Virus record (IMG/VR): IMGVR_UViG_2778261538_000001
Direction: 5' to 3' (one strand)
Length of the DNA stretch: 43,878 bases
Source of the DNA: a virus
Taxonomy: Duplodnaviria; Heunggongvirae; Uroviricota; Caudoviricetes
In this document: in pieces, positions 5,767 through 22,876 of the stretch
How the letters are laid out: each line of letters starts with the position of its first letter
Numbering within the stretch: the stretch's first letter is position 1
Position numbers and translations under genes: made by a program
Notes under the pieces: generated by a model
Told to the model about the DNA's origin: nothing
Seen by the model: only the letters and a program-made list of their open reading frames with translations
The model's database searches: none

Positions 5767-6510
5767 TTACAAATACTTTACATTTACCGCTATAAGAGAA
5801 TAATCGTCAGTCGGGCCTTTTGTCTCTATTCTTCGCATTAGGCTGGAGGCAAACCTTGATGCGGTTGACAATGTACGGTAAGAAAATCGTGGGCGTTGCT
5901 CCCAAAAGGTATGCGCGCCATCAGACATGATGAATAGAGATAGAACACCATCGTCAAGAGGAAGTTCATCTTTATCAATATTTATGACTTGATGTTGAAG
6001 GGGGATCTTGGCAGCAAGTGCAGTTGTAATAATATTTTTACCTTTTGCATTTTTGAGCTGTCGAGCTGTATAAATACCGCTATCTATCAACATTTGATGT
6101 TGAGTATGATCTGTTGTTAATTGGATTAGCTTATTTCCATTTTTTAAATAAACACGACAGTCACCTACATGTATAATTGTTAGACCTTGATTGTGAAGTA
6201 GGCACATTGTTAAAGTTGTAGCAGCAGATGCTAATTCTTTATCAACTGACGAAAGAGATGCCACCTTTTCTTGTAGGGTCTTAAGTAAGGATAAGACATT
6301 GTCTTCATGAGTGAAGCTGTCTTTAATACTATACAAATGATTTATTACTGCTGCAGATGCTTCTTTTCCTCCTTTATAACCACCAACCCCATCAGCTATA
6401 GCCATAAGATAACCATTTGGTGTTTGAAGTGGATAAAGCACGCTATCTTGATTTTCCCTGCCATTATGTTTTGGTACAGAAAATATGGATGATGAGAGTA
6501 TGCTAATCAT
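5767..6510 (-). CDS. PP2C-family Ser/Thr protein phosphatase, 247 aa
   Basis: Motifs AIADGVGG, HVGDCRVY and FIMSDGAH in the translation; overlaps kinase stop by 4 nt; AT-rich. Confidence 0.8.
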   Translation of the reverse strand: MISILSSSIFSVPKHNGRENQDSVLYPLQTPNGYLMAIADGVGGYKGGKEASAAVINHLYSIKDSFTHEDNVLSLLKTLQEKVASLSSVDKELASAATTLTMCLLHNQGLTIIHVGDCRVYLKNGNKLIQLTTDHTQHQMLIDSGIYTARQLKNAKGKNIITTALAAKIPLQHQVINIDKDELPLDDGVLSLFIMSDGAHTFWEQRPRFSYRTLSTASRFASSLMRRIETKGPTDDYSLIAVNVKYL

Positions 6511-7232
6511 AAGCGTTTCAACTCCAATTCCTCAAAGATCTGCTCTACGGTCAGGAATCTTTTGTTAAGTTGTCTATGCGTACATTTGTTTATTATATCA
6601 TCAAAACCATCAATATTTAATTCTTCAATTAAAATACCAATTGAATATATATCTGATTGTTTTGAATATCCGTTGAGGAAAACGTTGTAATCAAAGTATT
6701 TAGGAGTAGCGGGGTATTGGCCAATTTGTGTTAATAGCTGTGTATTGGCATCTGGTGACACATTTTTTGCAAGGCCGAAGTCAGATAACTTATAAATTCC
6801 ATCTTTAAATTTTAGTACATTTAGTGGTTTTATATCCCGATGAAGATATCCTTTCTTATGAATCCATCCGACGGCATTTAGTACCATTTTTACAATAGAG
6901 ATTTTTTCAGCCTTTGTAAGAGTTCCACTTTTTATTTCTTCTTCAAGATTTGTTTCTGCTAGTTCCATTACGAACCAAGGCTGAGCATTCTGTAAGTGGC
7001 ATATGAATATTTGGACAATATTAGTATGCAGGCATTCAGTTTGATATCTTACTTCTCGTTCAAATCTGGTAAAGAGTTCAGGATCTGTTGCATCAGGTCG
7101 TAAAATTTTTCTGGCATATAGACCACAAATTTTTCTTTGTGAGTTATATAACCTTATTTTTTCTACAAGGCCAAAACCGCCAGAACCAATTACTTCTAGG
7201 GGTTCTATTAGGTAATTCCCACGTTCTTCCAT
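6507..7232 (-). CDS. Minimal Hanks-type Ser/Thr protein kinase, 241 aa
   Basis: Gly-rich loop GSGGFG, conserved Lys (YARK), catalytic loop HRDIKPLN, DFG motif (LSDFGLAK); AT-rich; directly downstream of cI. Confidence 0.85.
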   Translation of the reverse strand: MEERGNYLIEPLEVIGSGGFGLVEKIRLYNSQRKICGLYARKILRPDATDPELFTRFEREVRYQTECLHTNIVQIFICHLQNAQPWFVMELAETNLEEEIKSGTLTKAEKISIVKMVLNAVGWIHKKGYLHRDIKPLNVLKFKDGIYKLSDFGLAKNVSPDANTQLLTQIGQYPATPKYFDYNVFLNGYSKQSDIYSIGILIEELNIDGFDDIINKCTHRQLNKRFLTVEQIFEELELKRL

Positions 7233-7327: not shown

Positions 7328-8017
7328 TTATCCATGCTTCCTATACGTCTGCGGCATGCTCCCGATGACTTTCCCGAAGATGAATACCCGGTTCATCTCG
7401 TCTTTCTCGATTGGGTCCCACGGTGAGTAGCTCTTGTTATCAGAGATAACCAGCAGTTTATCCTTCATCATTTGCAGGCGCTTTACATGGGCTGTGTCGT
7501 CGTACAGAAACGCATAGATACCATCACCGTCGAAAGATTTAACCGTGATATCAACGAACAGCAGATCACCTGGTTCGATCGTTCCTGACATGCTGTCACC
7601 GCGTACGTTAATGATACGGATATTTTCCGCCTTCCTGCCATCGAACATGTGACGAGCATCGTCAAACGAATACTCAACCGAACGTAGAACTTCTACAAAC
7701 TCACGGTTGATGACTCCCGGCCCGGCACTCACTTCGATATCAAGAACGTCAATCTTAAAGTATTTGGAATGGCTGACAGTTGTTTGTATTGGTTGCACTG
7801 TACTGTCTGACATATTTCCAACGCCAGAAGATAACCATTCTGCGCGCACACCCAAAGCGTTCGCGATCTCCACGATTTTAGTTGTTTGGTTAGCTTTCCC
7901 TGTTTCGATTTTCTGAATAGCTGCTTGGCTAACCCCGACCAAATCCCCAAGCGCCTTTTGTGTAAGGCCTCGCGCTAATCTGGCTTCTTTAAGTCTTTCT
8001 GAGAGTGTTGTTTTCAT
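7328..8017 (-). CDS. cI: CI-type prophage repressor (HTH plus LexA-like S24 autopeptidase domain), 229 aa from ATG at 8017
   Basis: N-terminal HTH (LTQKALGDLVGVSQAAIQKIETG), C-terminal GDSM and VKRL Ser/Lys dyad motifs; divergent from cro. Confidence 0.85.
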   Translation of the reverse strand: MKTTLSERLKEARLARGLTQKALGDLVGVSQAAIQKIETGKANQTTKIVEIANALGVRAEWLSSGVGNMSDSTVQPIQTTVSHSKYFKIDVLDIEVSAGPGVINREFVEVLRSVEYSFDDARHMFDGRKAENIRIINVRGDSMSGTIEPGDLLFVDITVKSFDGDGIYAFLYDDTAHVKRLQMMKDKLLVISDNKSYSPWDPIEKDEMNRVFIFGKVIGSMPQTYRKHG

Positions 8018-8121
8018 AGTCCAAATGTACAACCAAGGTTTTATTTCATCAAACGAAAATGGTTGTTGACTAAAAACAACCATGGTTTTAATCTTGATTC
8101 AAATTAACCACGGAGGTTGTT
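8018..8121. promoter_or_regulatory. oR operator / pRM-pR divergent promoter region
   Basis: Palindromes AACCAAGGTT (8031-8040), GGTTGTT-N7-AACAACC (8061-8081), AACCATGGTT (8078-8087); rightward TTGACT (8066-8071)-17 bp-TAATCT (8089-8094); GGAGG RBS before cro. Confidence 0.55.
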
Positions 8122-8421: not shown

Positions 8422-8961
8422 ATGCAACCACTTACATACCAACAGACTAGCGGATTTAGCCCGACTGCGGTGATAAATCGTTCTCAAACAAAACAAGCTC
8501 CAGGCCACGAAAAAATCCGTGATGCCGTCCGCGCCTGGTCGGCTGTAGATAATCAGGATGTCGTTGCCGCACTCATTGTGAATGAGTATCGGGAGCAGGG
8601 CGGCGGCACCATCGATTTCCCTGATGATGTCAGCCGTGCACGCCAGAAGATGTTCCGCTTCCTCGATAACAAATTCGATTCTGAAAAATACCGAAATAAC
8701 GTGCGTGAACTGACCCCGGCAATTCTGGCGGTACTACCGCTGGAATATCGCGGTTACCTAGTTGAGCAGGATAGCTTCATGGCTCGGCTGGCTGAAATGG
8801 AAAAGGAACTCAGTGAGGCAAAGCAGGCGGTCATTCTCAACGCACCACGCCACCAGAAACTGAAGGAGATGAGTGAAGGCATTGTGTCGATGTTTCGAGT
8901 GGACCCGGATCTGGCTGGTCCACTGATGGCGATGGTCACCACCATGCTGGGGGCAATATGA
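8422..8961 (+). CDS. CII-position regulatory protein (YdaT-like), 179 aa
   Basis: Position immediately after cro and before O; no catalytic motif recognised. Confidence 0.55.
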   Translation: MQPLTYQQTSGFSPTAVINRSQTKQAPGHEKIRDAVRAWSAVDNQDVVAALIVNEYREQGGGTIDFPDDVSRARQKMFRFLDNKFDSEKYRNNVRELTPAILAVLPLEYRGYLVEQDSFMARLAEMEKELSEAKQAVILNAPRHQKLKEMSEGIVSMFRVDPDLAGPLMAMVTTMLGAI

Positions 8962-9047
8962 CAGGTTCAGAAATGGCGAAAGCCGGTCTGCTGGAACAGA
9001 ACCGACTTTCAGGTGCAAATCGTAACACACTCATTGCGGGAGGAATT

Positions 9048-9977
9048 ATGGCAAACACTGCTGAGATATTCAATTTTCCAGTGCCGGATGCGGCACAAAA
9101 GGAGCCGCGCGTGGCAGATCTCGATGATGGTTATACGCGCATTGCAAATGAGTTGCTGGAAGCTGTGATGCTGGCCGGATTAACACAGCACCAGCTTCTG
9201 GTCTTTCTGGCTGTCATGCGCAAAACATATGGCTTTAATAAAAAACTGGATTGGGTTAGCAACGAGCAACTTTCCGAATTAACCGGGATATTGCCGCACA
9301 AGTGTTCTGCTGCAAAAAGTGTTCTGGTAAAGCGTGGGATTTTTATTCAGAGCGGGCGGAATACCGGCATTAATAATGTGGTCAGTGAATGGTCTACATT
9401 ACCCGAATCAGGTAAGAAAAATAAAGTTTACCTGAAAGAGGTAAATTTACCTGAATCAGGTAAAAAAAGTTTACCCAAATCAGGTAAAGGCGTTTACCCG
9501 AATCAGGTAAACACAAAAGACAAACTAACAAAAGACAATATAAAACCTTTTTCGTCCGAGAATTCTGGCGAATCCTCTGACCAACCAGAAAACGATCTTC
9601 CTGTGGTGAAACCGGATGCTGCAATTCAGAGCGGCAGCAAGTGGGGGACAGCAGAAGACCTGACCGCCGCAGAGTGGATGTTTGACATGGTGAAGACCAT
9701 CGCGCCATCAGCCAGAAAACCGAATTTTGCAGGGTGGGCTAACGATATCCGCCTGATGCGTGAACGTGACGGACGTAACCACCGCGACATGTGCGTGCTG
9801 TTCCGCTGGGCATGCCAGGACAACTTCTGGTCCGGTAACGTGCTAAGTCCGGCCAAACTCCGCGACAAGTGGACCCAACTCGAAATCAACCGTAACAAGC
9901 AACAGGCAGGCGTGACAGCTAGCAAACCAAAACTCGACCTGACAAACACAGACTGGATTTACGGGGTGGATCTATGA
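9048..9977 (+). CDS. O: Replication initiator O, hybrid: non-lambda N-terminal DNA-binding half, lambda-like C-terminal half (309 aa from ATG at 9048)
   Basis: N-terminus shows the lambda-O pattern (ADLDDGY...LTGILP...) with divergent sequence; C-terminus ...KWTQLEINRNKQQAGVTASKPKLDLTNTDWIYGVDL matches lambda O; GGGAGG RBS at 9037. Confidence 0.85.
   Translation: MANTAEIFNFPVPDAAQKEPRVADLDDGYTRIANELLEAVMLAGLTQHQLLVFLAVMRKTYGFNKKLDWVSNEQLSELTGILPHKCSAAKSVLVKRGIFIQSGRNTGINNVVSEWSTLPESGKKNKVYLKEVNLPESGKKSLPKSGKGVYPNQVNTKDKLTKDNIKPFSSENSGESSDQPENDLPVVKPDAAIQSGSKWGTAEDLTAAEWMFDMVKTIAPSARKPNFAGWANDIRLMRERDGRNHRDMCVLFRWACQDNFWSGNVLSPAKLRDKWTQLEINRNKQQAGVTASKPKLDLTNTDWIYGVDL
9399..9510. repeat. Replication origin iterons inside O: four to five copies of about 18 bp TTTACC(C/T)(G/A)AATCAGGTAA, followed by an AT-rich stretch
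   Basis: Directly visible tandem-spaced repeats at about 9399, 9425 (degenerate), 9446, 9470 and 9493; AT-rich segment 9511-9560. Confidence 0.75.
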
Positions 9978-10675
9978 AAAACATCGCCGCACAGATGATT
10001 AACTTTGACCGTGAGCAGATGCGCCGGATCGCCAACAACATGCCGGAACAGTACGACGAAAAGCCGCAGGTACAGCAGGTAGCGCAGATAATCAACGGTG
10101 TATTCAGCCAGTTACTGGCAACTTTCCCGGCGAGCCTGGCTAATCGTGACCAGAACGAACTGAACGAAATCCGCCGCCAGTGGGTTCTGGCTTTCCGGGA
10201 AAACGGGATCACCACGATGGAACAGGTGAGCGCCGGAATGCGTGTTGCCCGTCGGCAGAATAGACCATTTCTGCCATCACCCGGGCAGTTTGTTGCATGG
10301 TGCCGGGAAGAAGCATCCGTTACCGCCGGGCTGCCAAACGTCAGCGAGCTGGTTGATATGGTTTACGAGTATTGCCGGAAGCGTGGTCTGTATCCGGATG
10401 CAGAGTCTTATCCGTGGAAATCAAACGCGCACTACTGGCTGGTTACCAACCTGTATCAGAACATGCGGGCCAATGCGTTGACTGACGCGGAATTACGGCG
10501 CAAGGCTGCCGATGAACTGTCCTGTATGACCGCGCGAATTAACCGTGGTGAGGCGATACCTGAACCAGTAAAACAACTTCCTGTCATGGGCGGTAGACCT
10601 CTAAATCGTGCACAGGCTCTGGCGAAGATCGCAGAAATCAAAGCTAAGTTTGGGCTGAAAGGAGCAAGTGTATGA
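9974..10675 (+). CDS. P: Replication protein P (DnaB loader), 233 aa
   Basis: Translation MKNIAAQMINFDREQMRRIANNMPEQYDEKPQVQQVAQIINGV... matches lambda P nearly identically. Confidence 0.97.
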   Translation: MKNIAAQMINFDREQMRRIANNMPEQYDEKPQVQQVAQIINGVFSQLLATFPASLANRDQNELNEIRRQWVLAFRENGITTMEQVSAGMRVARRQNRPFLPSPGQFVAWCREEASVTAGLPNVSELVDMVYEYCRKRGLYPDAESYPWKSNAHYWLVTNLYQNMRANALTDAELRRKAADELSCMTARINRGEAIPEPVKQLPVMGGRPLNRAQALAKIAEIKAKFGLKGASV

Positions 10676-10974
10676 CGGGCAAAGAGGCAATTATTCATTA
10701 CTTGGGGACTCATAAGAACTTCTGTGCGCAGGACGTTGCCGCGGTAACAGGCGCAACCGTAACCAGCATAAATCAGGCTGCGGCTAAAATGGCGCGGGCA
10801 GGAATCCTGGTCGTTGATGGTAAGGTCTGGCGAACGGTGTATTATCGGTTCGCTACCAGAGAAGAATGGGAAGGAAAGGTGAGCACGAATTTGATTTTTA
10901 AGGAGTGTCGCCAGAGTGCCGCGATGAAACGGGTATTGAGGGTATATAAAAGAACATCAATGGGTACACAATGA
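10672..10974 (+). CDS. ren: Ren, 100 aa
   Basis: Translation MTGKEAIIHYLGTH... matches lambda Ren over most of its length. Confidence 0.88.
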   Translation: MTGKEAIIHYLGTHKNFCAQDVAAVTGATVTSINQAAAKMARAGILVVDGKVWRTVYYRFATREEWEGKVSTNLIFKECRQSAAMKRVLRVYKRTSMGTQ

Positions 10975-11041
10975 TGAAACAGGTGAGTTGAGTTCAAACT
11001 GTAGTACAATTCTCTCCAGTTTGAACAGGAAAGAATATGCT

Positions 11042-11374
11042 ATGAATCCTTATATTTATCTTGGTGGTGCAATACTTGCAGAGGTCATTGGTACAACCTT
11101 AATGAAGTTTTCAGAAGGTTTTACACGGTTATGGCCATCTGTTGGTACAATTATTTGTTATTGTGCATCATTCTGGTTATTAGCTCAGACGCTGGCTTAT
11201 ATTCCTACAGGGATTGCTTATGCTATCTGGTCAGGAGTCGGTATTGTCCTGATTAGCTTACTATCATGGGGATTTTTCGGCCAACGGTTGGACCTGCCAG
11301 CCATTATAGGCATGATGTTGATTTGTGCCGGTGTGTTGGTTATTAATTTATTGTCACGAAGCACACCACATTAA
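11042..11374 (+). CDS. emrE: SMR-family multidrug efflux transporter EmrE, 110 aa
   Basis: Translation from MNPYIYLGGAILAEVIGTTLMKFSEGFTRLWPSVGT... matches E. coli EmrE; start chosen at ATG 11042. Confidence 0.93.
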   Translation: MNPYIYLGGAILAEVIGTTLMKFSEGFTRLWPSVGTIICYCASFWLLAQTLAYIPTGIAYAIWSGVGIVLISLLSWGFFGQRLDLPAIIGMMLICAGVLVINLLSRSTPH

Positions 11375-11629
11375 AAATAATTTGTTTTTAAACGACTAAA
11401 ATATGGAGGCTCGTATATTTATATGGGCCTCGTTTTATGCTTTTTGTTAATGTCTTTAGTTTTTATTCATTCTTTTGTGCTTTCAAGATTATGGTGTAAG
11501 AAAATTGCAATACGATTATTGTTGTATATTCAAGATAATGTGACCTTAATTGTCTTTTTAAATAAAAATTAAACAAAAATCATATCTCACCACTAAGGTT
11601 TATAAAAGCATACTTTAGCAGGTGTCACC

Positions 11630-13156
11630 ATGAAAAAAGCCATAGCATATATGCGATTTTCATCACCAGGTCAGATGTCTGGTGATTCATTAAACCGCCA
11701 GAGAAGGCTTATTACTGAATGGCTAAAGGTAAATAGTGATTATTACCTTGATACCGTAACGTATGAAGATTTGGGGTTAAGCGCATTCAATGGAAAGCAT
11801 GCACAATCAGGAGCTTTTTCGGAATTTTTAGATGCTATAGAACATGGTTATATATTGCCAGGGACTACATTGTTAGTTGAAAGTCTGGACAGACTTTCAA
11901 GAGAAAAAGTCGGTGAAGCGATTGAGCGTCTGAAATTGATTTTGAATCACGGTATTGATGTTATAACTCTTTGCGATAATACAGTCTATAATATTGACTC
12001 ATTGAATGAGCCATATTCATTAATAAAAGCCATACTTATAGCACAAAGGGCAAATGAAGAAAGCGAGATAAAGTCAAGTCGGGTTAAATTATCATGGAAG
12101 AAAAAACGGCAGGATGCACTGGAGTCAGGCACGATTATGACGGCTTCTTGTCCGAGATGGCTCTCATTGGATGACAAAAGAACGGCTTTTGTTCCAGACC
12201 CCGACAGGGTGAAAACTATTGAGCTAATTTTTAAACTCAGGATGGAAAGGCGCTCATTGAATGCAATAGCCAAGTATTTAAATGATCATGCTGTAAAGAA
12301 TTTCTCAGGAAAAGAAAGTGCATGGGGACCTTCTGTAATTGAAAAATTATTAGCGAATAAAGCTCTGATAGGTATATGCGTACCTTCATATCGTGCAAGA
12401 GGCAAAGGGATAAGTGAAATCGCTGGCTATTATCCCAGAGTCATATCAGATGATTTGTTTTACGCTGTACAGGAAATTCGGTTGGCACCTTTTGGTATTA
12501 GCAATAGTAGCAAGAATCCTATGCTAATAAATCTACTTCGAACAGTTATGAAGTGTGAGGCTTGTGGTAATACCATGATTGTTCATGCGGTATCTGGAAG
12601 TTTGCATGGCTATTATGTTTGTCCGATGAGAAGATTACATCGATGTGACAGACCATCAATAAAAAGAGATTTGGTTGATTATAATATCATTAATGAATTG
12701 CTTTTTAATTGTAGCAAAATTCAACCAGTTGAAAACAAGAAAGATGCTAATGAAACTTTAGAGTTAAAAATTATTGAGCTTCAGATGAAAATTAATAATT
12801 TAATCGTTGCATTGTCTGTCGCGCCTGAAGTTACCGCTATAGCAGAGAAAATAAGACTATTAGATAAGGAATTACGAAGGGCTTCGGTATCATTAAAAAC
12901 TTTGAAGAGTAAAGGGATGAGTTCACTTGGTGATTTTCATGCTATTGATTTAACCAGTAAAAATGGGCGAGAGCTATGTCGTACACTTGCCTATAAAATA
13001 TTCGAAAAAATTATAATTAATACAGATAATAAAACCTGTGATATCTATTTTATGAATGGCATTGTTTTTAAACACTATCCTTTAATGAAAGTAATATCCG
13101 CCCAGCAGGCGATAAGTACTCTTAAATATATGGTTGATGGTGAGATTTATTTTTGA
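11630..13156 (+). CDS. Large serine recombinase (resolvase/invertase catalytic domain plus recombinase and zinc-ribbon domains), 508 aa; YbcK-like
   Basis: N-terminal YMRFSSPGQ catalytic-serine motif; Cys cluster CEACGN...YYVCPMRRLHRCD; very AT-rich. Confidence 0.8.
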   Translation: MKKAIAYMRFSSPGQMSGDSLNRQRRLITEWLKVNSDYYLDTVTYEDLGLSAFNGKHAQSGAFSEFLDAIEHGYILPGTTLLVESLDRLSREKVGEAIERLKLILNHGIDVITLCDNTVYNIDSLNEPYSLIKAILIAQRANEESEIKSSRVKLSWKKKRQDALESGTIMTASCPRWLSLDDKRTAFVPDPDRVKTIELIFKLRMERRSLNAIAKYLNDHAVKNFSGKESAWGPSVIEKLLANKALIGICVPSYRARGKGISEIAGYYPRVISDDLFYAVQEIRLAPFGISNSSKNPMLINLLRTVMKCEACGNTMIVHAVSGSLHGYYVCPMRRLHRCDRPSIKRDLVDYNIINELLFNCSKIQPVENKKDANETLELKIIELQMKINNLIVALSVAPEVTAIAEKIRLLDKELRRASVSLKTLKSKGMSSLGDFHAIDLTSKNGRELCRTLAYKIFEKIIINTDNKTCDIYFMNGIVFKHYPLMKVISAQQAISTLKYMVDGEIYF

Positions 13157-13478
13157 GTAATAATCACTTTTTCAACCGTGCTATGGTATGAAAGTAAAGT
13201 AACTAATATGATATTAACTATCTTGAACGAAGCGCCCTGAGCTATAGTTTTACTATAGGCACTGCCACTGGATGTTGGCATTCTTGCTCTAGTAGCTCAA
13301 CAATACCCAATCACAAAACAATTCACTGATAACAAACTTTGTGCACGTGCTTGGTTATGGCGAACAGGTGATGTTAACCTCTTGCCTGAATGCCACTCCA
13401 CTTCATTAAGTATCTGAGCACCGAGAGGCTGGTCACGCCCCCATTAAAAATAATTTCTTTTGAATCGAGTGAAATAGG

Positions 13479-13505
13479 TTAGCCCGCATAAGTGCGGGCT
13501 GCTTT
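13479..13505 (+). terminator. Stem-loop terminator (AGCCCGCA-taag-TGCGGGCT then GCTTTTT)
   Basis: Perfect 8-bp stem with T-run on the plus strand; abuts the 3' end of the minus-strand esterase gene. Confidence 0.5.
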
Positions 13506-14549
13506 TTACAGGTCAGCGTTTGTTTTTTGTTGTTGGGTAGCGGTTTTTATGGGGGTTCCCAGGTTTTTAGTAAACCACTCAACAACTCTGTTTATAATAA
13601 TTGGCTGATACCATGTATTATCGCCATGCTCAGCCCCTTCTACCAGAACGTACTCAGCGTTATCGCCGTTCTTCTTCAACATCCTGAATAGTTTGGCGCT
13701 TTGCTCAGGTGAAACCAGAGTGTCTTTGCTACCATGCATAATAAGAAATGGGGGTTTTACTCCTTTCATATGTCCGATTGGACTGGCGTTTAGCGCTTTT
13801 TCTTTTGACGCTGTTATGGGGGCTCCCGCAAAACTTCTGAATGCAGGGCCATTGATCATTAAGGCTTCGGTTACGGCAGGAGATCGATGAACCTCCTGCA
13901 CTGATTCAGGGAACCCCTCGCCAATATTCAACAAGTCAGAAATCCCATAAAGTGTGGCAACTGCCTGAACATCTGCTGATTGCTGAAGAAAGTCACCTTT
14001 ATTAAAGGTTTTGTCACCATTTGTAGTTCCCATCATCTGGGCAAGCCATCCACCGGCAGAGTCACCCAGAACTCCGATTCTTTGAGGATCAATCCCATAA
14101 TCGCTGGCATGTTCTCTCAAGTAACGTATTGCAGCTTTCCCATCCTCAACTGGTGCTGGAAATGTATCAGGAATTGTTCTGTATTCTACAGCGGCCACAA
14201 CAAAACCAGCTTCAGCCAGAGCCATTCTCATTTCAATAAATTTGTCATGTTCAGAAGACATGAATCCGCCGCCGGGATAATAAATAATGGCTGGTTTTAA
14301 ATCATTTGTTCGCGGGACAAGAACTGACATGTGAAGCTGTCTGACAGAACGAGTTCCTTTTATCTGGGAATAAACAACATCACCAATGAGATCGACCTGG
14401 TTTCTGGTGGGTGAAACACTAATGATATCTGCACCCGGGGTGTAACCAGGAAGATTAGTCTGGACAGGTGTTGCACAACTCCCGACCGACATGGCCATTG
14501 ACATACCATACAATAGTGTTGCAGATGATAATATCTTGTTAATTTTCAT
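13506..14549 (-). CDS. Secreted alpha/beta-hydrolase (esterase/lipase family) with N-terminal signal peptide, 347 aa
   Basis: GDSAGG nucleophile elbow, YYPGGGF oxyanion-hole-like motif, hydrophobic N-terminus ending ...SVGSC (possible lipobox). Confidence 0.8.
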   Translation of the reverse strand: MKINKILSSATLLYGMSMAMSVGSCATPVQTNLPGYTPGADIISVSPTRNQVDLIGDVVYSQIKGTRSVRQLHMSVLVPRTNDLKPAIIYYPGGGFMSSEHDKFIEMRMALAEAGFVVAAVEYRTIPDTFPAPVEDGKAAIRYLREHASDYGIDPQRIGVLGDSAGGWLAQMMGTTNGDKTFNKGDFLQQSADVQAVATLYGISDLLNIGEGFPESVQEVHRSPAVTEALMINGPAFRSFAGAPITASKEKALNASPIGHMKGVKPPFLIMHGSKDTLVSPEQSAKLFRMLKKNGDNAEYVLVEGAEHGDNTWYQPIIINRVVEWFTKNLGTPIKTATQQQKTNADL

Positions 14550-17058: not shown

Positions 17059-18141
17059 TTAGAACTGATAAACCAGACCTACAGCGACGATGTCGTCGGT
17101 ATCAATACCAGCTGTTTTGGTAAACTTACTATCGTCAATTAAGTTGATTTTGTAATCAACAAAAGTGGACATGTTTTTATTAAAGTAGTAAGTAGCACCG
17201 ACATCGACATACTTGACTAAGTCTCGGTCACCATGAACACCAAGGTCTTTACCTTTTGACTGAAGGTAAGCAACAGATGGTCGCAGACCGAAGTCAAACT
17301 GATATTGTGCTACTGCTTCAAAGTTTTGTGCTTTGTTTGCAATATGGTTATTACCAAAAACGGTCATATTCTGAGTTTCAGAATATGTGGTAGCCAGATA
17401 GATATTGTTCGCATCATATTTCAGGCCTGCAGCCCATACTTCCGCATTTTTGCCGGAGGCATTGAATTTGCTCTTACCATAGGCGACCTGACCGTCAGTG
17501 CGATCTGATTTAGCATAGGTTGCACCCACGCCGAATCCTTCATACTCATAAGTAGTGGAGAAACCGAAACCATCACCATTGGCTTCAGTTACGTCAGTGC
17601 GGTCATTTTTACCCTGATACTGAGCAGCAAAGTTCAGGCCATCGACCAGACCAAAGAAGTCGTTGTTACGATAAGTTGCAACACCAGTAGTGCGACCAGT
17701 CATGAACACATCTGTTTGGGTCCAGGTATCACCACCGAATTCTGGCAGGACGTCAGTCCACGCACCGATGTCGTATGCTACACCGTAGTTACGGCCGTAA
17801 TCGATTGAGCCGTAATCACCAAATTTCAGGCCTGCAAATGCAAGACGGGTTTTGTCTTTGGAAGAACCTTGAGATTCAGCACGGTTGCCTTTGAATTCAT
17901 ATTCCCACTGACCGAAACCAGTCAGTTGATCGTTGATTTGGGTTTCACCTTTGAAGCCAAGACGGGCATAAGTAGTATCACCATCATCTGCATCATTAGA
18001 GGAGAAGTAGTGCTTGGCATTAACTTTCCCGTATAGATCCAGCTTGTTACTGTCTTTATTATAAATTTCAGCTGCCTGAGCAGACATCGCCATCAGTACT
18101 GATGCAGCTACAGCAGAAATTGCCACTGTTAATTTTTTCAT
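17059..18141 (-). CDS. nmpC: OmpC/OmpF-family general porin (NmpC/Lc type), intact, with signal peptide, 360 aa
   Basis: Signal peptide ending [12 protein letters not shown]-terminal ...VGLVYQF terminal Phe, typical 16-strand porin; antisense to late operon. Confidence 0.93.
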
Positions 18142-18730
18142 TGTACGCCCTTTTTTTTGAACTATTATTAAAAAATGATGTCACTGCGCGATAAATATTC
18201 ATCTAATCAATGCGATTATTTCAAGATGTAAGTTTTAGTTTCTCATTTAATTTGTGAAGTAGATCTCTATTTTTATCTGAACCTTTTCTATCTAATCCTA
18301 TTCATGGCTCTTGTTTGAACGAAAATAAATCTATTAGCTAATTTATATTAATGGCACTTATTTATAAGCGCTCTATAATTCTTTAGCTTAATTTAAACAA
18401 ACTAAAAATAACATCGGAAATTATTCATTGGTTATTTGTTGAAGTTTTCTTATGTATTTGTGGTGGTGTTTTGAACACTCGGTGGCATTCTCACAAATAT
18501 CATTTAGTAGTTTACGTACGTAAAAAATTGGTTATGCTGTTAAGAGTGGTTACTTCGTCACACAGCTTAAACCCGCCGTCGAGCGGGTTTTTCCATTTTT
18601 TGAGTCTCGATATTAGCTGATAACCCAATACCTGAGTTATTCACTGACTCCAAATCTGTTACGTTTCTGCCTTTATTGCGATACGTAGTATCCCCTTAAT
18701 TTACACCCGCTTTGTCTGCGAGGTGGGGTT

Positions 18731-18946
18731 ATGAAATCCATGGATAAGTTAACAACGGGTGTCGCCTATGGCACCTCAGCAGGTAGTGCCGGGTACTGGT
18801 TTTTACAGTTGCTCGATAAAGTCACGCCCTCACAGTGGGCGGCAATAGGTGTGCTGGGTAGTCTGGTATTTGGCTTGCTGACGTATCTGACAAACCTTTA
18901 TTTCAAGATTAAAGAAGATAAGCGTAAGGCTGCGAGAGGTGAATAA
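18731..18946 (+). CDS. essD: Class II pinholin (S21 type) with dual start M1-K-S-M4, 71 aa
   Basis: Translation [18 protein letters not shown]... two TM segments; matches phage 21 S / DLP12 EssD from memory. Confidence 0.88.
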
Positions 18947-19443
18947 TGTCGCCATCATTACGCAAGGCTATTGCTGCTGCTATTGGTGGTGGGGCTGTTG
19001 CCATAGCGTCTGTGCTCATCACTGGTCCGAGTGGTGACGATGGCCTGGAAGGTGTCAGCTACATACCATACAAAGATATCGTTGGCGTATGGACTGTATG
19101 TCACGGACACACCGGAAAAGACATCATGCTCGGTAAAACGTATACCGAAGCAGAATGCAAAGCCCTCCTGAATAAAGACCTTGCCACTGTCGCCAGACAA
19201 ATTAACCCGTACATCACAGTCGATATACCGGAAACAACGCGCGGCGCTCTTTACTCGTTCGTTTACAACGTGGGCGCTGGCAATTTCAGAACATCGACGC
19301 TTCTTCGCAAAATAAACCAGGGCGATATCAAAGGCGCATGTGATCAGCTACGTCGCTGGACATATGCTGGCGGTAAGCAATGGAAAGGTCTCATGACTCG
19401 TCGTGAGATTGAGCGTGAAATCTGTTTGTGGGGTCAGCAATGA
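18946..19443 (+). CDS. rrrD: SAR endolysin (lysozyme), 165 aa
   Basis: Gly/Ala-rich signal-anchor-release N-terminus ([20 protein letters not shown]) then lysozyme domain; ATGA overlap with holin stop. Confidence 0.9.
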
Positions 19444-19898
19444 ACAGAGTAACCGCGATTATCTCCGCTCTGGTTATCTGCATCATCGTCTGCCTGTCAT
19501 GGGCTGTTAATCATTACCGTGATAACGCCATTACCTACAAAGCCCAGCGCGACAAAAATGCCAGAGAACTGAAGCTGGCGAACGCGGCAATTACTGACAT
19601 GCAGATGCGTCAGCGTGATGTAGCAGAACTCGACGCCAGATACACAAAGGAGCTTGCTGATGCTAACGCGACTATCGAAAGTCTTCGTGCTGATGTTTCT
19701 GCTGGGCGTAAGCGCCTGCAAGTCGCCGCCACCTGTGCAAAGTCAACGACCGGAGCCAGCAGCATGGGCGATGGAGAAAGCCCAAGACTTACAGCAGATG
19801 CTGAACTCAATTATTACCGTCTCCGAAGTGGAATCGACAAGATAACCGCGCAGGTCAACTACCTGCAGGAGTACATCAGGACGCAGTGCTTAAAATAA
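19440..19898 (+). CDS. Rz i-spanin, 152 aa
   Basis: N-terminal TM helix plus coiled-coil periplasmic domain; ATG overlaps endolysin stop. Confidence 0.85.
19654..19845 (+). CDS. Rz1 o-spanin lipoprotein embedded in the +1 frame of Rz, 63 aa
   Basis: Signal peptide with lipobox-like ...LLGVSAC then Pro-rich mature region ([13 protein letters not shown]). Confidence 0.7.
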
Positions 19899-19936
19899 TT
19901 TTAATTTCACTGAAATTTTATACGTGACTTTCAGGA

Positions 19937-19965
19937 AAATGCCTCGCAGATGCGGGGCATTTTTG
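19937..19965 (+). terminator. Rho-independent terminator after the lysis cassette
   Basis: GCCTCGCA-ga-TGCGGGGC stem-loop followed by ATTTTT. Confidence 0.55.
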
Positions 19966-20314
19966 TACAGGTATTTCACCGCGCACCGGAGCGCACTCAA
20001 CCACGTCGAACCAAACCCTTTGGAATGAGCCTTTGAGTAGTCAGTTAGTGCTGGTGAGCCTTGACGGGCTGATCTCCTATGCAGCAAAGGTTCATCACAA
20101 AGTAAGGCGAACGCTATGACAAACCAAGATTCTATAGACCTATCTGATCTTCGTGGAATGGTCAGTTTTCCAGACAAAAGGTAATCACCATAGTCGTATG
20201 GCTATGAATCTTGTTGCTGCAGATAAGCATTTTGTGATTGAAGTGGTCAAATCTCTCAAATGCAGTAAAATGCAGTGCGCTATAATTCAATAACGGAGGG
20301 AGTAAGGAGAAGTC

Positions 20315-20935
20315 ATGAAAGATCAAGATGTTAGGTTCGCGGTGCATCATAAGCTTTTGAAAGAATCGCATTTAGATCCAGACTGTCTTGTGGTCGATGA
20401 ATTTTCCATATCCCTTGGCGCCAGTAGAGCAGACATTGCTGTAATAAATGGTGTTATACACGGGTACGAGCTCAAAAGTGAATATGACTCTTTGGAGCGT
20501 TTGCCTCTTCAAATCAAGCATTATTCTTCTGTAATGGACAAGGTTACTCTTGTCGTAGCTGAGAAACACCTTGAGGGAGCATTAAAGTTAATCCCAGGTT
20601 GGTGGGGCGTTAAAACGGTTTCTGTTGGGCCAAAAGGCGCCATTCTTATAAAGCACATGCGTGGAGAAAAGCTTAATCGAAACCATGACACATTGATGCT
20701 CGCTCAATTGCTTTGGAAAGATGAATGTATCGACGTACTTGAACGATGGGGCTATTCCAAAGGAATCAAAAGCAAGCCCCGATTTGAGTTATGGAATATT
20801 ATTGCGGAAAATATTCCAATAGCGAATCTCAGGCTTGAAGTCAGAACAGCCTTAAAGAAACGCGTAGGCTGGAAAGTTAAGGCTTGGCAGGCTGAGTCTG
20901 CGCCAACCAATAAAGCTGTCTCACGACTAACGTAA
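20315..20935 (+). CDS. PD-(D/E)xK-like protein (possibly sce7726 family), 206 aa
   Basis: Motif VVDEF...RADIAV...GYELKSE (D...D...E-x-K) in the N-terminal half; AT-rich; convergent with and overlapping its partner. Confidence 0.6.
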   Translation: MKDQDVRFAVHHKLLKESHLDPDCLVVDEFSISLGASRADIAVINGVIHGYELKSEYDSLERLPLQIKHYSSVMDKVTLVVAEKHLEGALKLIPGWWGVKTVSVGPKGAILIKHMRGEKLNRNHDTLMLAQLLWKDECIDVLERWGYSKGIKSKPRFELWNIIAENIPIANLRLEVRTALKKRVGWKVKAWQAESAPTNKAVSRLT

Positions 20936-21944
20936 TATGGTGCGTATGTGCAACTTTACGCCATTCTTTAGAGCCGCCAGATTTGTTAGCGCCTAATGAT
21001 CTTTGGTAAATGTAATCATCCCCCCAACTAAATTTGGAGCCAAAGACTTGATACTCTGGCGAACTAACAAGGGTAGTACATAAGTTTTTAGTTTGGCCCC
21101 ATCCATTTCCTTTAACTGCGGTACCTTTTACAAAGATCCATGAGGTATCGTTCGAATATCTCACTGAGACATACTGAGACATGAAGCGTGGGTCTACGCT
21201 CGTAATGGTAGAGCTAGCGGTGGGATAATCACTAAAACTTGGCGTTCTTCCATTGCTAAAATTCTGTACTACGTACATCCAAAGATCGTATTCATGGCGC
21301 GGAATATGATGAACTTGATGTTGCGGTATCCCTGCCTGTGATGCCGGGTATGCGGTTGAAGATAAAATCAAGTTTCTCCACGGAGCTTGGCCTGATAATG
21401 TGTTGACCATGCTTAATGCTTGTTGTTTTAAACTATCAGTTGCGTTTTGAATATCTCCAAAATCAATGATTACATCAATTAAACTAGGATGAATATTTAA
21501 GTGGTTAACCAGACTTGTGAATTGGTGCCATGTCTGGGGGGTGATAGATATAGCGAGCCCATTGATTAAGTTGCGTTGAACAGCATGTATATAGTTTGTT
21601 GAATATGCGGGAGAAACAACAGGGATAATTTCCTTACCATTTACTCTAGCATCTTGGATACACATATCTAGAGGATGATGGCGGCTCGAACCATGTTTAT
21701 CTAAATATTTAACATCCAGCAAAACAGGACGATTGGCTTTCCAGGATGCCGCAAGGTTAATACCGAAGTCAGATAAGTAAGAACTCAAACTCTTCTTGTA
21801 GCATTCGTTTTCATAATCCCAGTCTATGTCTGGAATGGTAATGATCGGAGTAAAACCAGAGAGCGTAGTTTGATCTAAAAGCATCAGAGATTCATATTCA
21901 GCAGGCTTCCATTTCAGCTGTGGATAATATTGATGTTGACTCAT
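20877..21944 (-). CDS. Uncharacterised 355-aa protein, partner of the PD-(D/E)xK-like gene (possibly sce7725 / beta-protein family)
   Basis: Long AT-rich ORF convergent with 20315..20935, 59-nt 3' overlap; no catalytic motif recognised. Confidence 0.6.
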   Translation of the reverse strand: MSQHQYYPQLKWKPAEYESLMLLDQTTLSGFTPIITIPDIDWDYENECYKKSLSSYLSDFGINLAASWKANRPVLLDVKYLDKHGSSRHHPLDMCIQDARVNGKEIIPVVSPAYSTNYIHAVQRNLINGLAISITPQTWHQFTSLVNHLNIHPSLIDVIIDFGDIQNATDSLKQQALSMVNTLSGQAPWRNLILSSTAYPASQAGIPQHQVHHIPRHEYDLWMYVVQNFSNGRTPSFSDYPTASSTITSVDPRFMSQYVSVRYSNDTSWIFVKGTAVKGNGWGQTKNLCTTLVSSPEYQVFGSKFSWGDDYIYQRSLGANKSGGSKEWRKVAHTHHITLVVRQLYWLAQTQPAKP

Positions 21945-22149
21945 TAAAACTCCTTAAAATCTTTACTTATCCTAAGTATAGTGTTATGGCGTAACGCCAA
22001 TTGTTTTTATACACTTGAAAACATTGGGAAAAGTTGAGCTATATCTAAATTTACAAAATTGGATGTTATAGAAATCGAGGTTTCAACTAGGCATGGAACT
22101 GCAAAATTTTTAATGCCTGCACGCGAAAGTCGTTGGCGGGTCCTTTCCG

Positions 22150-22356
22150 GTGATCCAGACCGTTACGGGGCGGCGACCTCGCGGGTTTTCGCTATTTATG
22201 AAAATTTTCCGGTTTAAGGCGTTTCCGTTCTTCTTCGCCGTAACCTAATGTTTTTATTTAAAACACCCCCTGAAAAGAAAGGAAACGACAGGTGCTGAAA
22301 ACGGGCTTTTTAGCCTCTGTCGTTTCCTTTCTCTGTTTTTGTCCGTGGAATGAACA
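22150..22356 (+). other. cos site: cosN with 12-nt cohesive end GGGCGGCGACCT at 22168-22179, followed by cosB up to the Nu1 start
   Basis: Sequence ...CCGTTACGGGGCGGCGACCTCGCGGGTTTTCGCTATTTATGAAAATTTTCCGG... matches the lambda cos region. Confidence 0.85.
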
Positions 22357-22876
22357 ATGGAAGTCAACAAAAAGCAGCTGGCTGACATTTTCGGTGCGAG
22401 TATCCGTACCATTCAGAACTGGCAGGAGCAGGGAATGCCCGTTCTGCGAGGTGGTGGGAAGGGTAATGAGGTGCTTTATGACTCTGCCGCCGTCATAAAA
22501 TGGTATGCCGAAAGGGATGCTGAAATTGAGAACGAAAAGCTGCGCCGGGAGGTTGAAGAACTGCGGCAGGCCAGCGAGGCAGATCTCCAGCCAGGGACTA
22601 TTGAGTACGAACGCCATCGACTTACGCGTGCGCAGGCCGACGCACAGGAACTGAAGAATGCCAGAGACTCCGCTGAAGTGGTGGAAACCGCATTCTGTAC
22701 TTTCGTGTTGTCGCGGATCGCAGGTGAAATTGCCAGTATTCTCGACGGGATCCCCCTGTCGGTGCAGCGGCGTTTTCCGGAACTGGAAAACCGACATGTT
22801 GATTTCCTGAAACGGGATATCATCAAAGCCATGAACAAAGCAGCCGCGCTGGATGAACTGATACCGGGGTTGCTGA

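Follow-up and report, generated by a model that had tools for sequence, protein, structure and literature searches.

The stretch of DNA analysed here (IMG/VR virus record IMGVR_UViG_2778261538_000001, Caudoviricetes; 43,878 nucleotides, hereafter the window) represents an intact lambdoid prophage of DLP12 type, which extends from int to the tail fibres. Between its lysis genes and the packaging site cos it carries two convergent genes, here named A and B, which RefSeq calls 'sce7726 family protein' and 'beta family protein', respectively. Judged from the homologies of the two proteins, this cassette is not an unknown but a gop-less variant of a validated, mechanistically unexplained family, and we favour, with moderate confidence, the reading that it represents the core, without gop, of the anti-phage family of P4 gop-beta-cII and PD-lambda-2, borne by the prophage as a defence module. 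A first-pass annotation, made from the sequence alone, had overlooked the match to beta and cII of P4 gop-beta-cII (PMC9122126) and to component C of PD-lambda-2 (PMC9519451). The cassette is organised as follows:

20315..20935, + strand: gene A, P4 cII-like / sce7726-family protein, 206 aa (open reading frame and profile matches)
20877..21944, - strand: gene B, Beta_protein family, 355 aa (open reading frame and profile matches)
20877..20935, no strand assigned: antisense 3' overlap of 59 nt, encoding B residues 337-355 and the non-conserved tail of A, residues 188-206

An AAGGAG Shine-Dalgarno site precedes both genes and, in comparison with cassettes of 76% DNA and 77-85% protein identity, the ratio of non-synonymous to synonymous substitution rates (dN/dS) amounts to 0.03-0.055 for A and 0.05-0.08 for B, which indicates that both are under strong purifying selection. 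On account of these low ratios and of the Shine-Dalgarno sites, we regard A and B as real genes. The overlap of their 3' ends, estimated beforehand at about 59 nt, is of exactly that length.

Profile searches, which the first-pass annotation had proposed, lead to sce7726/cll for A and to Beta_protein/PD-Lambda-2_C for B. Protein A matches the NCBIfam sce7726 model NF033832 over residues 1-183 (184.1 bits, 2.3e-54; curated cutoff 70 bits), PADLOC 'cll' (4.3e-31) and phrog_984, and public precomputed annotation assigns it to Pfam PF26915 'Phage_P4_cII'. Its PD-(D/E)xK nuclease domain spans residues ~1-120; a C-terminal domain of helices follows at ~126-182, and residues 192-206 form a disordered tail, in which the predicted local distance difference test score (pLDDT) falls below 50. 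The restriction-endonuclease-fold signature reported earlier for this protein is indeed present: the residues E29, D40, E52 and K54 of the LVVDEF...RADIAV...GYELK motif are invariant across 77 non-redundant homologues of many phyla, and A thus combines the restriction-endonuclease core fold with the conserved acidic/lysine motif that defines the PD-(D/E)xK superfamily. A is a PD-(D/E)xK-fold protein with an intact catalytic motif and a predicted nuclease. It has the core fold and the E..D..ExK constellation in common with MmcB-like and other restriction-endonuclease-fold nucleases (3dnx, NucS, Can2, SdaI), but it shows no sequence-level match to solved structures or to the Pfam copy scanned (the A family profile gave chance matches only against PDB chains) and it departs from those nucleases in having a TIM-barrel protein as obligate partner and a helical C-terminal domain of its own. 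An sce7726-like nuclease core (residues ~14-145, 26-30% identity) also occurs in ~290 records of lytic Staphylococcus, Bacillus and Lactobacillus myophages, none of which was matched by tblastn with the beta protein; since no beta partner is detectable there, the nuclease family exists also as a stand-alone protein in virulent phages.

The earlier statement that the 355-aa protein has no nameable motif did not hold, as B is a full-length member of Pfam Beta_protein (PF14350, 8.2e-56). It also matches phrog_9159, PADLOC beta (3.5e-10) and the PD-Lambda-2_C models PDLC03984 (4.4e-32) and PDLC03983 (2.2e-25), the last two covering residues ~132-349 only, i.e., the C-terminal 60%. The beta family comprises 3766 clusters at 50% identity (E <= 1e-3), whose listed members are stand-alone proteins of ~360 aa. 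The predicted model of B (pLDDT 93.2, predicted template modelling score 0.91) is a (beta/alpha)8 TIM barrel followed by a C-terminal helical bundle. Some 18 residues, mostly Asp, Arg, Tyr and His, are conserved family-wide, and the location of several of them (D77, D161, R216 and D239) at strand ends of the model suggests that B may be an enzyme. The family profile gave chance matches only against PDB chains, 36 diverse beta proteins scanned against Pfam at E <= 1 showed no recurrent weak match to a known TIM-barrel family, and comparison of B with TGT/DpdA, GDPD/PLD, BKACE, NeuB and other TIM-barrel families yielded nothing above the generic TIM-barrel background. The sole match in a BFVD fold search was the homologue of Gordonia phage Powerball.

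We investigated whether the two genes occur together, again as the first-pass annotation had proposed, in a comparative set obtained with the A profile from a scan limited to one genome for each species (80 loci, designated by L and a number), to which the P4, Rac-SA53 and Gordonia phage loci were added, giving 83. The A-profile loci are from Gamma-, Alpha- and Betaproteobacteria, Myxococcota, Firmicutes, Bifidobacterium, Elusimicrobiota, Dehalococcoidia, phyla of the candidate phyla radiation (CPR) and one archaeon. A Beta_protein gene is convergent with A in 81 of the 83, the two exceptions being L008, whose contig ends just after A, and L009, from which beta is absent. In the reverse direction, a convergent cII-like gene accompanies beta in 40/40 loci retrieved through beta in IMG/VR, where the close beta alignment used mostly retrieved the same E. 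coli cassette, and in 6/6 diverse beta representatives. The distance matrices of A and B are correlated with a Mantel r of 0.86, a value reached by 0/2000 permutations. Given this correlation and the nearly complete pairing, the A-B pair travels and evolves as a unit. Within it, A is more conserved than B in 71/71 loci (mean identity 47% vs 33%). Six loci (L009, L010, L036, L047, L058 and L073) hold an intact A with all catalytic residues and a beta that is missing, truncated or frameshifted, which may reflect recent decay or assembly errors; taken as they stand, they suggest that A is not constitutively lethal and speak against simple toxin-antitoxin (TA) and classical restriction-modification (R-M) models.

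PD-lambda-2 was described as a three-gene system formed by a HigB-like component A, a toxic Xre-HTH/M78-peptidase B and a component C 'related to a P4 phage antitoxin' (Vassallo et al. 2022, PMC9519451), the last being required for defence (PMC9519451). Among the 81 paired loci, 42 have no gene upstream of beta on the same strand within 150 nt, as in the window, so that the two-gene form is common. A PD-Lambda-2_B-type Xre/M78 peptidase gene lies directly upstream of beta in 24, preceded by a gene for a DUF6932 protein in 15 of these and for a PD-Lambda-2_A HigB in three, and gop occupies this position in P4 alone. This distribution identifies the beta/cII pair as the core that is conserved, with gop and the genes for HigB and the peptidase as add-ons. 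In the 24 operons of PD-lambda-2 type (L036 5625-6887, L055 5647-7129, L063, L082, L049 and 19 others), with the order HigB or DUF6932, Xre-HTH/M78 peptidase, beta, we also noticed that the 3' end of beta overlaps a convergent P4 cII-like nuclease gene; the published PD-lambda-2 may have an overlooked or truncated fourth, convergent component. Other genes found upstream of beta are an AAA_16/AAA_22 ATPase gene, overlapping the beta start by 4 nt (L134, 1775-4630), and a gene for a small HTH_17 protein in a locus adjoined by an OLD-TOPRIM ATPase and a UvrD helicase, i.e., Gabija-like (L131, 546-4759).

The 3' overlap itself is widespread, being present in 79 of the 81 paired loci with a length of 4-110 nt, most commonly 44 nt. 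The codons of two invariant residues on opposite strands, W186 of A and H336 of B, are exactly 25 nt apart in 59/71 loci. The shared 44 nt encode the conserved L-K-x-R-x-x-W-R of A and, in antisense, the conserved N-H-H-[LI]-T-x-V-x-x-Q-L of B, and the core of the overlap, TGGCGAG, is nearly invariant across bacteria, CPR and an archaeon (e.g., L049 4539-4582, L068 1346-1389, L055 4542-4570). These alignments thus show dual coding of unusual rigidity at the 3' overlap. The enterobacterial lineage of the window presents a relaxed variant, with a spacing of 64 nt and a 59-nt overlap confined to the disordered, non-conserved tail of A; the overlap is only 11 nt long in the 76%-identical cassettes and is lost altogether in P4. 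No RNA structure was found in the overlap of the window on either strand (z ~0.3 for both), for which reason a structured bidirectional terminator was rejected and each transcript is expected to run antisense into the other gene.

The surroundings of the cassette in the window are the following:

18731-18946: holin
18946-19443: lysozyme
end at 19898: Rz/Rz1
19935..19964, no strand assigned: bidirectional terminator-like hairpin just after Rz, left boundary of the slot (RNA fold)
20223..21960, no strand assigned: extent of the transferable cassette (blastn, ~76% DNA identity to Klebsiella, Edwardsiella and Pectobacterium cassettes and to IMG/VR cassettes of 77% protein identity)
20244..20271, + strand: candidate sigma-70-like promoter of gene A, TGGTCA-16-TAAAAT (consensus scan, 9/12 matches)
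~22150-22260: what we take to be a lambda-type cos, by its likeness to that of lambda
start at 22357: Nu1

The two genes had been placed in the slot where lambda carries bor, regarded as a moron hotspot. In phage PhiR47_2 the slot from Rz to Nu1 indeed contains Bor and small open reading frames (ORFs), and in phage IdasGreatGrand it contains an anti-repressor, so that 'bor slot' and 'moron hotspot' are fair names. The insert is AT-rich and foreign in composition, as had been noted, with a GC content of 0.39-0.44 vs 0.50-0.55 in the flanks. Gene A is oriented as the phage late operon and gene B as bor in PhiR47_2. The blastn similarity that delimits the cassette starts 70-90 bp upstream of the ATG of A and ends 11-20 bp upstream of that of B, and the candidate promoter of A falls inside the conserved upstream stretch. 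The hairpin is located ~350 bp upstream of gene A; its predicted stability is -20.2 kcal/mol on the + strand (z -5.6), where a U-run follows, and -14.2 kcal/mol on the - strand (z -4.8), and it was overlooked by a simple consensus scan. The segment 19900-22350, the only one compared, matches E. coli DETEC-P881 at 100% identity. At a query coverage of at least 80%, 126/5426 complete E. coli genomes (2.3%) carry the cassette, and a DNA-level search of deposited phage genomes did not recover it.

Other cargo of the same prophage was observed. A Ser/Thr protein kinase gene (6507-7232, - strand) and a PP2C phosphatase gene (5767-6510, - strand) stand beside a CI-like S24 repressor gene (7328-8083), at the position that rexAB holds in lambda. 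The pair recalls the Stk kinase of phage 933W, which excludes HK97, and probably gives this prophage a second moron for defence or exclusion. A porin gene, annotated OmpC and NmpC-like (17059-18141, - strand, 360 aa), separates the Q antiterminator from the lysis cassette and is on the opposite strand, with very AT-rich flanks (GC 0.28-0.31 at 18050-18500). The early-right / nin region (8422-14549) contains a YdaT toxin-domain protein, an EmrE small multidrug resistance pump, the recombinase YbcK and, on the opposite strand, an alpha/beta hydrolase.

Elsewhere, the pair is found in comparable positions. In Acinetobacter prophages (L135-L137, 5001-6621) it is directly downstream of an HTH/S24 CI-like repressor gene, with beta co-oriented with the repressor; this is the place of rexAB in lambda, classical for exclusion genes expressed in the lysogen. 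The Rac-SA53 copy has an IS1 on one side and hok/mok on the other, and in Gordonia phage DumpsterDude the pair is flanked by the lysis genes and by a BrnT toxin module. The cII-like nuclease gene of DumpsterDude (L004 3956-4633; 28621-29298 of the record) is unannotated, a 71-aa ORF on the opposite strand inside it being annotated as gp32, and its equivalent in the sister phage Powerball is annotated as 'exonuclease'. The neighbours outside prophages include Gabija-like genes (OLD-TOPRIM ATPase and UvrD helicase), BrxA, DarT and a Type ISP R-M enzyme, as well as a reverse transcriptase of a diversity-generating retroelement and SMC-like ATPases.

Three-gene relatives of the cassette are known to act against phages. 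P4 gop-beta-cII protects against lambda and P1 (Rousset et al., PMC9122126) and, according to the citing paper, Gop is toxic without beta, which neutralises it (Ghisotti 1990 as cited in PMC9122126). The gop-beta-cII locus of ECOR59 kills the cell in response to the phage accessory gene orf184 (Silas et al., bioRxiv 10.1101/2023.04.06.535777). We hypothesize that the lambdoid prophage carries the two-gene cassette as a lysogenic-conversion module, which would act by superinfection exclusion or abortive infection. The highly conserved PD-(D/E)xK protein A would be the effector, cutting nucleic acid, and the faster-evolving TIM barrel B would sense the infection or control the effector, perhaps with an enzymatic activity of its own. 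The convergent overlap, with no terminator between the genes, would lock A and B together, and antisense transcripts may set the A:B ratio. The two-component anti-phage system suggested by the first-pass annotation gains support in this way from the homology to P4 beta and cII and from the context. While the activity of the three-gene cassettes comes from the literature, we infer that the two-gene form probably defends as well, with the sensor and effector roles and the antisense regulation just described.

Several observations weigh against this reading. P4 cII received its name from a clear-plaque phenotype, the fold search assigns no specific activity to beta, and the promoter and antisense ideas derive from consensus scans only. 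The effector of the two-gene form is putative, because Gop (in P4) and the Xre-peptidase (in PD-lambda-2), the sole reported toxins, are absent. Phage resistance and abortive infection have been shown for three-gene P4-type cassettes only (PMC9122126; 10.1101/2023.04.06.535777). In addition, the PD-lambda-2 clone (ECOR42 QOYB01000002, 228989-232396) extends only ~390 bp beyond gene C. At least in that system, beta can thus contribute to defence when no complete cII-like gene is present, and the nuclease may be dispensable or regulatory.

In an alternative with the roles reversed, the TIM-barrel beta would be an enzymatic effector that, for example, depletes or modifies a metabolite or nucleic acid, and the cII-like protein a DNA-binding sensor or regulator. 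We consider it unlikely, since A retains the complete PD-(D/E)xK catalytic set with 100% conservation, a sign of catalysis rather than of binding alone, since effectors are usually the more conserved partner, here A, and since no specific enzymatic family can be assigned to beta. The neutralisation of Gop by beta in P4, as that secondary account gives it, the description of both gop-beta-cII and PD-lambda-2 as TA-like, and the spread of the cassette on mobile elements would suit an addiction module in which the nuclease is the toxin and beta the antitoxin, and which serves to keep the prophage or island stable and has no dedicated role against phages. Slightly lower still is the probability we give to this proposal: both tested relatives confer phage resistance, convergent transcription is atypical of protein TA pairs, and beta is absent or disrupted in the six intact-A loci, subject to the reservation about decay and assembly made above. 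The same six loci, having no working beta, count against an R-M-like arrangement, which is improbable in our estimation; there, beta, a TIM-barrel enzyme for base exchange or modification, would modify host DNA, and incoming DNA that is unmodified would be cut by the nuclease. The convergent gene order does resemble that of many type II R-M systems, but the similarity of beta to DpdA/TGT does not rise above what TIM barrels show in general. Just as improbable is a function in the phage's own life cycle, be it lysogeny control, as suggested for P4 cII, or DNA repair and recombination, as for MmcB-like nucleases, because chromosomal defence islands outside prophages contain the pair as well, the slots differ between phages and hold dispensable cargo, and so few E. 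coli genomes carry the cassette.

A more far-reaching and distinctly tentative proposal can be made: the convergent overlapping pair could be an ancient core, sufficient on its own, of a large defence family that extends over bacteria, CPR and archaea and is missed by defence-finder definitions. In that case, gop and the HigB/Xre-peptidase genes would be lineage-specific additions, beta an enzyme or sensor of a new kind by which the nuclease is licensed, and the fixed-spacing overlap a functional coupling device. The two validated systems, gop-beta-cII and PD-lambda-2, had passed for three-gene, TA-like oddities without a relation to each other. A beta-family protein is present in both, and in the relatives surveyed it is always paired with a convergent nuclease gene, the two-gene core often being alone. 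Should the minimal pair defend alone, it would offer the simplest handle on what the beta TIM barrel does, and many such cassettes would now be missed by defence-annotation tools that require gop.

With regard to other known elements, the likeness to lysogenic-conversion morons of the lambda bor and rexAB type lies in the kind of slot, the Bor of PhiR47_2 having the same Rz-to-cos position; Bor and Rex have no sequence or fold kinship with the cassette, and position alone is in common. The resemblance to sce7726/sce7725 (beta-protein) gene pairs, proposed by the first-pass annotation, stood for one partner only: A is a bona fide sce7726 member, whereas B belongs to Pfam Beta_protein and not to sce7725_fam, with no match to the sce7725 hidden Markov model NF033831 at E <= 1. 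That model matches one of 36 diverse partners of the A clade (1.5e-5) and none of 10 in a further set. These profile comparisons indicate that 'sce7725' and 'beta protein' should not be equated. In the literature, sce7726/sce7725-type pairs appear only as unexplained island cargo.

PD-lambda-2 shares one component with the window, since B matches component C, over residues 141-344 only. No ORFs for a HigB-like component A or an Xre-HTH/Peptidase_M78 component B are present in 21945-22356, whereas such genes lie upstream of beta in other loci (e.g., L036 and L055). As published, PD-lambda-2 has no cII-like component, and its clone has too little room for one.

The closest relationship is that to P4 gop-beta-cII (DefenseFinder Rst_gop_beta_cll; PADLOC gop/beta/cll). 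B is homologous to P4 beta, both being PF14350 proteins of 355 aa with 22% identity over the full length (BLASTP 3e-7), and A is homologous to P4 cII (27% identity, BLASTP 1e-18, sce7726 / PF26915). In P4, gop (+), beta (+) and the convergent cII (-) adjoin cos; in the window, beta and cII are likewise convergent, and both cassettes occupy a hotspot of a temperate element next to cos. The two differ in gop, the only P4 component reported to be toxic, which the window cassette lacks: a tblastn search of the whole window with P4 Gop gave chance matches only (E > 4), and between the start of B (21944) and cos/Nu1 there are no minus-strand ORFs, save spurious ones inside Nu1. Having neither gop nor HigB nor the Xre-peptidase, the window falls outside the three-gene definitions of both gop-beta-cII and PD-lambda-2. 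Further differences from P4 concern the length of the cII-like protein (206 aa vs 264 aa in P4), the gene spacing (59-nt overlap vs a 27-nt gap with a terminator) and the host element (a lambdoid prophage vs a satellite). A recent survey, which gives no function for Rst_gop_beta_cll, reports it from Proteobacteria only; the beta/cII core pair is much more widespread than this three-gene system.

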